Positions 4,973-7,267 of a DNA stretch of 27,803 bases are shown in pieces (positions within the stretch are counted from its first letter, which is position 1; each line of letters opens with the position of its first letter). The stretch is from IMG/VR virus record IMGVR_UViG_2531839664_000018, one strand, 5' to 3'. Source of the stretch: a virus (lineage: Duplodnaviria > Heunggongvirae > Uroviricota > Caudoviricetes). A program made the position numbers and the translations under genes. Below the pieces are notes generated by a model, which did not search any database, was not told the DNA's origin, and saw nothing but the letters and a program-made list of their open reading frames with translations.

Positions 4973-5226
4973 CTGATGTATGTCTCCGTCACCGCCGACA
5001 GAAAATGAAAGTAAAGGAAAACAAAAAGCCGCCAGTGTCACCCACTGACGGCCAACTCCGGGAGCCGTGATTATGGCATTCAGGCTCTGCTAAAAATGCC
5101 AGATAACATTCCGGCCTCCCCTGATTCAGGTTATAAATGACACAATATCTTGACAACACCCGTCACTGTCTGTCAGAAAATATACCGCCAGGCATAAGTA
5201 TCATGTGAAATCCAACTATCCTTCTG

Positions 5227-5269
5227 AGCCAGCACCTCTCCACCGAAAGTCAGTGCTGGCTGTTTTTTT
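5227..5269 (+). terminator. Plus-strand intrinsic-terminator-like hairpin (unit A), antisense to the late operon
   Basis: AGCCAGCAC-17 nt loop-GTGCTGGCT followed by GTTTTTTT; no plus-strand ORF upstream. Confidence 0.4.
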
Positions 5270-5376
5270 CCTTAATAAAGCATCTGTAACTGAAACAATC
5301 CGCATATTGATAATATATTGACAGGCATCATTGCTGTCTGTGAAAAATAAGTCTCTACAAACATATAAGGCCTTTT

Positions 5377-5417
5377 AGCCAGCGTCTTCTTTCAGGTCAG
5401 TCGCTGGCTCTTTTTTT
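5377..5417 (+). terminator. Plus-strand intrinsic-terminator-like hairpin (unit B), paralogous to unit A
   Basis: AGCCAGCG-17 nt loop-CGCTGGCT followed by CTTTTTTT; T-run abuts the nanS-p stop codon on the opposite strand. Confidence 0.4.
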
Positions 5418-5418
5418 A

Positions 5419-7267
5419 TTATGCTGCCGGTGCATTTATCTCCAGCACCAGACTTTCTATCTCAACGCCATACGCTGCATTTTTTGTAACATCCGTCAGC
5501 GTCAGCGCATTCAGTCCCAGTGTCAGACTGTCTTTTATAACCTGGAATGCCGGGCCAGCCACTCCATTCAGTTTCGGAGTAACCGTGGCACTGCCGGCGG
5601 TGAACACCAGCTCCAGCGTCTGCCAGTCGTTACCGTAATCGCCGAACTCCCCCAGCTTCGTGTTTCCGGCTTTCCTGTGATGCATCAGATTCACTCTGCC
5701 GTCAGTGGTCTGAGTGAAGTACGACATCAGGAACGGATTACCGGTACCCGTCATCGCCACACCATCAGGAACGGGAGCATCCGTATACAGATAAATCCCC
5801 AGCCCGAACTGATTGTTGGTCAGTGCGCCTGACAGGCGGAACTTACAGGTCAGTCTGCCGCCCTGTGTCAGCAGGGTAATTGCGTCATCCACCGGATGCG
5901 TCAGGGACCAGGTTTTATTGCTCTGCTTGGTGATCTTAAATACACCATCTGACAACTGAATTCCGCCATCCTTAATGCTCCAGCCCTGCGCAGCAGCCTC
6001 TCCGGCTGCCGGCAGCAGGGAGATTGTGCGAACGGACGTATCTGCAGACGGACCCGATGGCGTGTTGCCGCCGGGCGAGGGTTTGATTTCCGGTGCCTTA
6101 CCACTGATGAAGGCTGAGGTGCGCCCGGCTGCGTACAGAATAGCGGTTGCCAGACGATCCGGAATAATGCTCCTGCGCGCCCATGAACTGAAATGTGTCG
6201 GGCGGTTTGATGATACCTGGTTTCCATTCGTTCTCGATGCCGCACCGTAATATCCTGATGCCGGAATATCCGGATCTTCTGCCGGCGCGTTAGTGGCGGT
6301 ATTGACGCCGTTACCGTCTGTCATGAAGGGCACAAAATAAACGCCCTCACTCTCCCTGTTTTTATACCCGCGTACACGGTGTCGTACTGGGTAGCGTATG
6401 TATTTTTCCAGTAATACGTCGTGTCACCACAAATCCACGGCACATCTGCAGCACTGCCACCATGGCACTGCGCGTTAAACACGGAGAGGTCAGCACGAAA
6501 CTGTGTCAGCATGGCTGTAAACAGCGCAGGTTGCTGTGCGTGGGTGGCGGCGCTCATGTCAAACTCTCCCTGCATCCAGCACACCGCCAGCAACACATTT
6601 TTCGGGTCTTCTGTAATGCAGCTTTGGTGCGCGCAATCAGGTCCTGATATAACGGTTTACCCACACCCCAGCGCGCCGAATCCTGGCTGGCCCCCGTGTC
6701 CGCACTGAATGTCCCCTCCGCGCCCTGGGTAAATGCCGAACCACCACGACAGCATGGTACCAGCAGGATCCCCGCGTTATTCGGGATATACGGGAGCAGT
6801 TTTTTGGCAATATGTAACCCCTGGCCGACACAGCCGTACTGCCCTTTGCTCAGGTCAGCCCTCGGATGATTCAGCGTACTCATATCCTGCACATCATGCA
6901 GACAGTGGTCAGCCGGAATAATATCGTTATATCTGCAGGCAGCCCCGCCCGGCGTCACTGTACTGCGGCGCGCCAGCTGTTTAATGCGCGGATCCGGAGC
7001 ATCGTATGAATCCGGCAGCGGAAGCCCTTCACCGTAAGCCATGGCATTGGATTGCCCGGCCAGTACGATGACGTAGTACCAATCCGGCTCAGATGAAGGG
7101 CCGACCTGTGGCTCTCCTTCAATAGCCACCGCCTGCATCAGTGTGTACGGCGTAATGGCAACCGGTCCGCCGTATGGCTGCCAGCCCTCTTTCAGTTTGT
7201 GTGTCAGCTTTTCCGCAAGGTCTGACGGCGACGCCGCCCTGACAACATCATAATGTTTAAATGTCAT
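5419..7267 (-). pseudogene. nanS: Prophage nanS-p-like sialate O-acetylesterase, disrupted by two frameshifts
   Basis: Three consecutive overlapping minus-strand ORFs (6554-7267, 6321-6596, 5419-6333) totalling ~616 codons; N-terminal DUF1737-like region (MTFKHYDVVRAASPSDLAEKL...), SGNH-type GQSN motif (VLAGQSNAMAYGEG); strong RBS GGGAGG before ATG 7267. First shift maps to a short C/G run near 6603-6606. Confidence 0.75.

Follow-up and report, generated by a model that had tools for sequence, protein, structure and literature searches.

Two tandem paralogous units of a lambdoid prophage as probable genes for PasA/PasC-family small RNAs

Here we report the analysis of two tandem units on the plus strand of a 27,803-nucleotide (nt) stretch of viral DNA (IMG/VR record IMGVR_UViG_2531839664_000018, class Caudoviricetes; hereafter the window, meaning the whole stretch at its full length), which are located between the sialate O-acetylesterase gene nanS-p and a pinholin gene. 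We consider it highly probable that the units are paralogous genes, arranged in tandem, whose products are short regulatory RNAs that bind Hfq and belong to the PasA/PasC family. Judged by sequence, both units are known Hfq-binding small RNA (sRNA) genes of lambdoid prophages, and their detection here is a rediscovery that adds no new element. What seems to be new, and is modest, is the recognition of the second unit as a diverged tandem paralogue with a promoter of its own.

PasA-family RNAs are among the most connected sRNAs of the accessory genome of enteropathogenic Escherichia coli (EPEC), where the 41 partners detected by RIL-seq, in which interacting RNAs are ligated and sequenced, include genes of the enterocyte effacement locus (LEE) and bfp genes. 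They are multicopy in the prophages of enterohaemorrhagic (EHEC) and Shiga toxin-producing (STEC) strains and are marked neither by Rfam nor by genome annotation, so that their placement is useful. The added value is small, namely that the locus normally holds two related cassettes and that PasC can be explained as a one-unit recombinant; the understanding of phage and sRNA biology is unchanged by the finding.

Two plus-strand units and their match to PasA-family RNAs

By reading positions 4800-5800 and indexing their motifs, we confirmed two paralogous plus-strand units, unit 1 at 5150-5269 and unit 2 at 5318-5417. The TTGACA, box, hairpin and T-run that the preliminary description of this DNA had assigned to each unit were all found in place:

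5150-5155, plus strand: -35 element TTGACA of unit 1 (motif index)
5166-5173, plus strand: box CTGTCTGT of unit 1 (motif index)
5174-5182, plus strand: A-rich box CAGAAAATA of unit 1 (motif index)
5227-5235 and 5253-5261, plus strand: stem arms AGCCAGCAC and GTGCTGGCT of unit 1, 9 bp, with 17 nt between the arms
5263-5269, plus strand: T-run T7 of unit 1, with one G between stem and run
5270-5317, plus strand: AT-rich inter-unit spacer of 48 nt, UP-element-like for unit 2
5309-5314 and 5314-5319, plus strand: -10-like hexamers GATAAT and TATATT of the inter-unit spacer (sequence reading)
5318-5323, plus strand: -35 element TTGACA of unit 2 (motif index)
5334-5341, plus strand: box CTGTCTGT of unit 2 (motif index)
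5342-5349, plus strand: A-rich box GAAAAATA of unit 2, including GAAAAAT at 5342-5348
5377-5384 and 5402-5409, plus strand: stem arms AGCCAGCG and CGCTGGCT of unit 2, 8 bp
5411-5417, plus strand: T-run T7 of unit 2, with one C between stem and run, ending 1 nt short of the nanS-p stop codon

Two details required adjustment. The order of TTGACA and CTGTCTGT is as described, but the gap between them is 10 nt and not about 12 nt, and the proposed hairpin formula fits unit 1, including the 17 nt between its arms, but not unit 2, in which a GCCAGCG/CGCTGGC stem stands over a U.U mismatch in place of GCCAGCGC/GCGCTGGC. The placement of plus-strand units among minus-strand neighbours holds, with the holin gene at 4766-4972 and the pieces of nanS-p starting from 5419.

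The shared architecture is not expected by chance. Across the 27.8-kb window, the pattern TTGACA-N10-CTGTCTGT has exactly two matches, and none of 100 shuffles contained it; the same holds for AGCCAGC-N14-24-GCTGGCTNTTTTTT (two matches; 0 of 100 shuffles). Alignment of the two units covers promoter, body and terminator, with 91 of 118 columns identical (z 7.8) and a score of 65.5, compared with 23.7 +/- 5.3 for shuffled sequences and 48 for the best of 886 other segments of the window. No third copy was detected in the window by an nhmmer profile built from six unit types. The only plus-strand open reading frames (ORFs) across the units encode 23 and 38 amino acids. Coding for a small protein was rejected, since the 38-codon ORF spans the unit 1 T-run, which is T6 or T7 depending on the homologue; thus this ORF, and hence the units, are taken as non-coding.

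The identity of the units follows from comparison with published RNAs. PasA is an Hfq-dependent 85-nt sRNA of prophage PP2 in EPEC strain E2348/69, encoded between esterase and holin genes on the strand opposite to both, with a major form at 743499->743415 (85 nt) and a minor form extending to 743264 (236 nt) (Pearl Mizrahi et al. 2021, PMC8550237). Window positions 5185-5269 match PasA in 74 of 85 nt, including 45/45 in the 3' part and 29/40 in the 5' part, and the PasA Northern probe GCCAGCACTGACTTTCGGTGGAGAG (PMC8550237, Table S6) is the exact reverse complement of 5237-5261. In this alignment, the PasA 5' end falls on 5185, its major 3' end on 5269 and its minor 3' end on the terminator of unit 2. 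Unit 1 thus shares with PasA the slot, orientation, promoter box, seed GCCAGCACCU, probe target and U7 terminator, and the minor form ends at a downstream second terminator, the counterpart of that of unit 2; the 11 differences are all in the first 40 nt. Unit 1 is probably the common variant named PasA-2 in the preprint of Zhu, Shabalina & Storz (2026). Unit 2 is more distant, with only 54 of 86 aligned columns identical to PasA, and its terminator matches that of PasC at 38 of 48 positions. The corresponding RNAs are the following:

5185-5269, plus strand: unit 1 RNA, PasA-type, about 85 nt by alignment to PasA, including the EcOnc51 peak
5353-5417, plus strand: unit 2 RNA, predicted at about 65 nt, including the EcOnc52 peak and equivalent to the 3' portion of the read-through PasA transcript of 236 nt

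The comparison with EHEC prophage sRNAs that the preliminary description had called for gave exact matches for both units. EcOnc51 (prophage Sp12) and EcOnc52 (Sp4) are peaks of Hfq cross-linking and analysis of cDNA (CRAC) in EHEC strain Sakai, each with a predicted Rho-independent terminator (PMC4104026, Table S2). After fetching their Sakai coordinates, we found EcOnc51 verbatim at 5213-5289 and EcOnc52 verbatim at 5352-5429 by exact string match. Both have been named, listed together, as EHEC homologues of PasA (PMC8550237); the original study presents them as separate orphan peaks in different prophages, not as a tandem paralogous pair, and without Northern verification (PMC4104026). Literature searches for the names EcOnc51 and EcOnc52 returned no main-text mention. 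PasA and PasC, on the other hand, have been verified by Northern blotting, and their accumulation or stability depends on Hfq in EPEC (PMC8550237). A search of 4900-5600 against Rfam at the gathering threshold and at E <= 10 gave chance matches at the level of snoRNAs only, which corresponds to the family being missing from Rfam. The proposal of a duplicated sRNA gene, with its own promoters and terminators and convergent with late transcription, is borne out by the PasA match and by the two verbatim EcOnc peaks.

Adjacent sRNA paralogues are known elsewhere. OmrA/OmrB of E. coli and PrrF1/PrrF2 of Pseudomonas have their own promoters and terminators, are conserved in one part and diverged in another, and show read-through spanning both copies. 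The likeness of the window pair to these systems would lie in how they work; the pair differs in being phage-borne and convergent to an operon, and independent initiation at its second copy is predicted.

Several points weigh against reading the region as two such genes. RNA evidence for this window comes wholly from homologues, and the borders of the CRAC peaks overrun the T-runs by 12-20 nt and so are not RNA ends. A strict sigma-70 scan called neither plus-strand promoter; the best -10 candidates either lack the canonical T at -7 or stand at a spacer of 19-20 nt; and the mature PasA 5' end may arise by cleavage of a longer transcript (Zhu et al. 2026 preprint). The regulatory outcome on any target is likewise something that we infer, and the complementarity of unit 2 to its candidate target escD, described below, depends on several G.U pairs.

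Promoters, terminators and the status of unit 2

The candidate promoters and the terminators of the two units are located as follows:

5150-5184, plus strand: predicted promoter region of unit 1, with a perfect -35, the CTGTCTGT box and an A-rich -10 candidate
5318-5352, plus strand: putative promoter region of unit 2, paralogous to that of unit 1
5227-5269, plus strand: intrinsic terminator of unit 1, a 9-bp stem, G and U7, leaky in EPEC
5377-5417, plus strand: intrinsic terminator of unit 2, an 8-bp stem, C and U7, partly called by the scan

The 5' ends of PasA and PasC, which come from two different prophages, are both 30 nt past TTGACA, the canonical distance for a -35 element, and this supports the promoter reading. 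The -10 candidates are CAGAAA (unit 1) and GAAAAA (unit 2) at an 18-nt spacer after TGT, or GAAAAT and AAAAAT at spacers of 20 and 19 nt, respectively. By homology and by the TTGACA distance, transcription of unit 2 would start near 5353, which gives its RNA a length of about 65 nt; initiation may instead take place near 5326, served by the GATAAT and TATATT hexamers at 5309-5319. Of 80 IMG/VR loci anchored on the nanS-p C-terminus, 59 were informative, and all units defined by their hairpin in these 59 have an undamaged promoter box.

The same segments could be read on the opposite strand, with minus-strand promoters (CAGACA-17-GATATT or CAGACA-17-TATATT) driving the holin gene and the hairpins serving as mere insulators. 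A promoter-like site with 9 of 12 positions was indeed called on the minus strand at 5340->5312 (CAGACA-17-TATATT), and unit 1 has an equivalent (CAGACA-17-GATATT). We find this explanation scarcely credible, as the published RNAs are plus-strand with 5' ends at the canonical TTGACA distance, and two promoter-like matches in 1.5 kb are no excess over the 1.2 +/- 1.0 expected. Moreover, a minus-strand terminator intervenes between these sites and the holin gene, and the hairpins as read on the minus strand have no U-tract after them. We also rejected the possibility of bidirectional terminators, since a minus-strand transcript would have an A-run ahead of each hairpin and no U-tract behind it.

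On the plus strand, both hairpins are read as intrinsic terminators. Their folding energies are -16.3 kcal/mol for unit 1 (z -2.9; 1 of 200 shuffles equally stable) and -16.0 kcal/mol for unit 2 (z -6.6; 0 of 200). Across 15 distinct hairpin variants drawn from both units, PasC and a single-unit type, 95.6% of the cells of the 9-bp stem hold a base pair, compared with 21-49% in shifted controls. Three stem pairs are changed on both sides (C-G/U-A, A-U/G-C and C-G/U-A); this covariation supports maintenance of the hairpin, with few events, related sequences and statistics that are not strong. In the GenBank record of phage 434, each hairpin is entered as a terminator on that strand, and neither is linked to a gene. 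In EPEC, the major PasA 3' end is at the terminator equivalent to that of unit 1, and the minor, 236-nt read-through form has its 3' end at the equivalent of the unit 2 terminator (PMC8550237). The preliminary description had made its proposal depend on transcripts ending at 5269 or 5417, and published homologues have 3' ends at both terminators.

Taken together, each unit would be a self-contained cassette composed of a sigma-70-type promoter with an AT-rich upstream stretch and a weak A-rich -10, a short RNA, and a Rho-independent terminator. In each RNA, the hairpin with its U7 tail and the U-rich stretch before it would form the usual Hfq-binding 3' module. Leakage at the first terminator would give the 236-nt read-through RNA ending at the second, and the second would halt antisense transcription 1 nt ahead of the nanS-p stop codon.

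Whether unit 2 is a gene of its own is less certain than its family membership. Published annotation treats the downstream part as the minor 3' end of PasA and groups EcOnc51 and EcOnc52 together as PasA homologues; according to the Zhu et al. 2026 preprint, a distance of 22 kb or more separates pasA copies, which are said not to be tandem duplicates, and unit 2 is not recognised there as a paralogue. A one-gene explanation can be built on this basis, according to which only the unit 1 promoter fires and unit 2 is a decayed duplicate that serves as the 3' extension and back-up terminator of PasA, with the 236-nt form and its processing products accounting for unit 2 RNA. It is consistent with the weak -10 candidates of unit 2 and with the lack of Northern support for EcOnc52. 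CRAC reads of identical copies are not assignable to one prophage, and the EcOnc52 reads may be multi-mapped because Sakai Sp12 has an identical unit 2, so that Sp4 is no proof of independent transcription.

Five observations point the other way. The similarity between the units spans the whole promoter box and not the terminator alone, and the unit 2 box has no substitution across the nanS-p-anchored loci. Where an insertion sequence (IS) has removed unit 1, as in Sakai Sp4 and locus L076, exactly unit 2 with its box is kept intact. The ratio of unit 2 to PasA chimeras in RIL-seq is 2.4% under activating conditions (119 vs 4983) and 47% under non-activating conditions (54 vs 116), a 20-fold shift that does not fit a fixed read-through fraction. 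Finally, unit 2 has a partner of its own, escD, to which it is complementary and PasA is not. On balance, we consider the one-gene explanation doubtful, and independent initiation at unit 2 somewhat favoured. With slightly better than even confidence, we suggest that unit 2 is an independently promoted sRNA of EcOnc52 type with its own seed and that the tandem PasA locus recurrently collapses to PasC-like hybrids. If true, this contradicts the published view that tandem duplication is not the source of pasA copies, and the EPEC/EHEC regulatory network gains a further sRNA that has targets of its own, such as escD.

Seeds, targets and mode of action

The features relevant to target recognition in the window are the following:

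5228-5237, plus strand: PasA seed GCCAGCACCU, unchanged, within the 5' arm of the unit 1 terminator stem
5441-5451, minus strand: site CUGGUGCUGGA complementary to the PasA seed, at the 3' end of the nanS-p mRNA, 8 bp (CCAGCACC/GGUGCUGG)

The seed is that given for PasA by PMC8550237 (Fig. S5) and by the Zhu et al. 2026 preprint. Unit 2 lacks it and has GCCAGCGUCU in its place; the seed of unit 2 would accordingly begin with GCCAGCGUCU in the 5' arm of the terminator stem, with GCGUCUUCUUU as the putative counterpart of GCCAGCACCU. Sites of the CUGGUGCUGGA type are PasA targets by RIL-seq and MAST in both nanS-p genes of E2348/69 (PMC8550237, Table S7), and CCAGCACC turns up as a repeat in the window.

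In RIL-seq, PasA has 41 partners, and 94-100% of its chimeras have it as the second RNA; none of the partners is an sRNA, and most are segments of coding sequences or 5' untranslated regions encoded elsewhere (PMC8550237). The entry that corresponds to unit 2, 'pasA.E2348C_0688.IGR', has five partners including escD, again with no sRNA among them, a U-tract of 7, and is always the second RNA (PMC8550237). A 12-nt stretch of unit 2, AGCGUCUUCUUU, is complementary, with G.U pairs allowed, to the escD chimera fragment, a length reached by 1% of shuffles, and PasA shows no such complementarity to this fragment. Whole-length RNAduplex comparisons with the nanS-p 3' end and with all window segments gave spurious long duplexes with values at background; targets were taken instead from the published motif and direct complementarity.

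These data suggest a mode of action in trans. The resident prophage would make both RNAs without the late promoter, convergent to the late transcript nanS-p -> S -> R, and the RNAs would base-pair with mRNAs in trans through a seed whose place, the 5' arm of the terminator stem, is unusual. Among the documented PasA partner sites is one at the 3' end of the mRNA of the neighbouring gene nanS-p.

The preliminary description also hinted at anti-sRNAs, and the units can be imagined as members of the AgvB/AsxR class of prophage sponges for core sRNAs. They have in common with this class the setting, as short Hfq-bound RNAs of the lambdoid late region convergent to late transcription, and the combination of variability at the 5' side with conservation at the 3' side. 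However, the AgvB and AsxR covariance models (RF02702, RF02703) show no sequence or structure match to the units, with no hit in 4900-5600 at E <= 10, and the same scan found AgvB elsewhere, at 7415-7476. The AgvB/AsxR slot is upstream of nanS-p, whereas the units are downstream, and neither PasA nor the unit 2 entry has an sRNA among its RIL-seq partners. The hint is therefore not upheld, and we regard this class assignment as very improbable.

A different alternative is that the main role is played in cis. The units were described as antisense to the late lysis operon, which is correct by position, but they are opposite the untranslated nanS-p-to-holin spacer and overlap no coding sequence. 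Convergent transcription, together with full-length antisense pairing with this spacer, could damp leaky holin or nanS-p expression in lysogens; in a variant, the RNAs would be titrated by the late transcript on induction and the trans targets would be secondary. This is consistent with the units facing the sole late-transcription route into S-R-Rz, with a spacer already organised to insulate the lysis genes by a minus-strand terminator just upstream of the holin gene, and with PasA chimeras that include the 3' end of the neighbouring nanS-p mRNA; one RIL-seq chimera also involves an opposite-strand RNA at the PasA 5' end (pasA.E2348C_0689.IGR). However, most of the PasA partners are encoded elsewhere, the module persists, and PasA-family RNAs are detected, in prophages where an IS breaks the lysis cassette (examples are this window, Sakai Sp4 and E2348/69 PP5), and the module is missing from Stx2-type phages in which the genes have the same order. 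We consider both cis versions, taken jointly, to be unlikely, and retain regulation in trans as the preferred mode of action.

Locus architectures, distribution and neighbouring genes

The architectures of the 59 informative nanS-p-anchored loci are as follows:

47 of 59 loci: both units
2 of 59 loci: both promoter boxes, with the second stem mutated
6 of 59 loci: PasC-type single unit
3 of 59 loci: single unit with the stem GCCAGTAC/GTACTGGC
1 of 59 loci: unit 2 only, behind an IS

A promoter-box scan detected at least 120 loci; among the matches listed, the spacing from unit to unit is 167-169 nt in 72 of 74 pairs, one tandem locus (L157) has a PasC-type hairpin as the unit 2 terminator, and another locus (L114) is a hybrid of a PasA 5' part and a PasC terminator. 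PasC in E2348/69 PP5 comprises one unit, compared with two in the window, in which a promoter box and 5' body of the unit 1 type are joined to a terminator of the unit 2 type (GCCAGCG.../...CGCTGGC) abutting the nanS-p stop. In view of L157 and L114, PasC would be best explained as a one-unit recombinant that arose by recombinational collapse of the pair.

The preliminary description would have been undermined by absence of the repeats from related prophages, and the module was found in hundreds of them. With a coverage of at least 80% of its 351 nt, the region occurs in 671 of 5426 complete E. coli genomes; it does so too in 26 phage records, which include H-19B and 434 but come for the most part from Stx1a-converting phages. 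The module is missing from Stx2-type phages (phage 86) and from two Escherichia/E. albertii loci, where the spacer measures 150 nt, and this points to a discrete, moron-like insert. A scan of genome contigs yielded three loci only (Escherichia sp. and E. albertii), which is little diversity for judging the species range. In phage 86 (L094, 880-925), and also in L088 and L089, the short spacer ends with GACTGGCTCACTTTTTATGATG by the nanS-p stop, resembling the 3' arm and T-run of unit 2 (GTCGCTGGCTCTTTTTTTATTATG); this end may be a remnant of a lost unit.

Across loci L006-L214, the body of unit 1 (5186-5224) varies in its first ~40 nt, which occur in at least five mosaic variants, with the promoter box and terminator nearly invariant; the body of unit 2 is much more uniform. 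Variation at the 5' side with conservation at the 3' side, as in unit 1, is also reported for AgvB/AsxR, although it is the conserved part that holds the PasA seed. The 300-bp module (equivalent to ~5235-5365) has collected independent IS insertions in L004 (Sakai Sp4), L076, L167, L193 and L194; two different elements are inserted just upstream of the TTGACA of unit 2, and further sites are in the unit 1 stem (two cases) and in the unit 2 body. Several of them have IS629-type ends (TGAACCGCCCCGG...), and the module looks like an IS629 hot spot; the 'PasA-3' variant, which has no terminator, may be the case in which an insertion breaks the terminator of unit 1.

The genes and other elements around the module are the following:

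4766-4972, minus strand: class II (P21-type) pinholin (Pfam PF04971, E 1.9e-32; same annotation in the nearest genomes)
5027-5053, minus strand: intrinsic terminator, 11 pairs followed by TTTTTGTTTTC; an equivalent site is annotated in phage 434
5098-5115, minus strand: second terminator-like hairpin, between the sRNA module and the holin start; that at 5027-5053 is the stronger
5419-7267, minus strand: nanS-p, a SASA-family sialate O-acetylesterase (Pfam DUF6645, DUF1737 and SASA)
3510-4723, plus strand: IS3-family element, IS629-like, between the holin and lysozyme genes, with an ALIL frameshift pseudoknot at 3791-3905
1-974, plus strand: copy of IS600 at the window start
7415-7476, plus strand: AgvB anti-sRNA, perfect Rfam match, 96.5 bits
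7477-7666, minus strand: STnc100/PasD-like RNA, 148 bits, back-to-back with AgvB and just upstream of nanS-p
8442-8688, minus strand: tRNA genes Arg, Arg and Ile, between a methyltransferase gene and a TerB pseudogene
13625-13799, minus strand: hok/sok locus (sok 114 bits; Hok coding sequence at ~13479-13634 in the nearest genome)
22794-22845, plus strand: DicF, 74 bits

The layout of esterase and holin genes is the same in the nearest genome, NZ_CP027435.1 (99.9% identical), and in E2348/69 PP2. Transcription of nanS-p without antitermination would stop ahead of the lysis genes. The lysis cassette is interrupted by an IS, and the prophage is thus probably defective. In the window, nanS-p is in three ORF pieces (5419-6333, 6321-6596 and 6554-7267); compared with the gene of NZ_CP027435.1, which is intact at 1851 nt, it lacks 2 nt, reflecting either a frameshifted pseudogene or homopolymer sequencing errors. 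HnrS (EcOnc10-12), the sRNA that neighbours this region in Sp12, is absent from the window.

We considered the derivation of unit 1 from the 3' end of nanS-p by inverted duplication, an idea prompted by a 16-nt inverted repeat and by GAAAGTC..GTGCTGG in both sequences, and rejected it because the alignment score of 42 is below that of the best genomic control (55.5). The inverted repeat itself matches in 15 of 16 positions between 5127-5142 (CAGGTTATAAATGACA) and 5529-5544 (TGTCTTTTATAACCTG) and flanks both units together with the last 125 nt of nanS-p; a comparable repeat occurred in 0 of 20 shuffles of the 700-nt region. Its right arm is coding sequence and is retained in loci without the module, and the repeat might allow long-range pairing within the late transcript, or be due to chance.

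The AgvB and STnc100/PasD-like genes occupy the slot of the 'convergent sRNA pair' of Tree et al. 2014 (PMC4104026). With the two units, they bring the number of sRNA genes around nanS-p to at least four.

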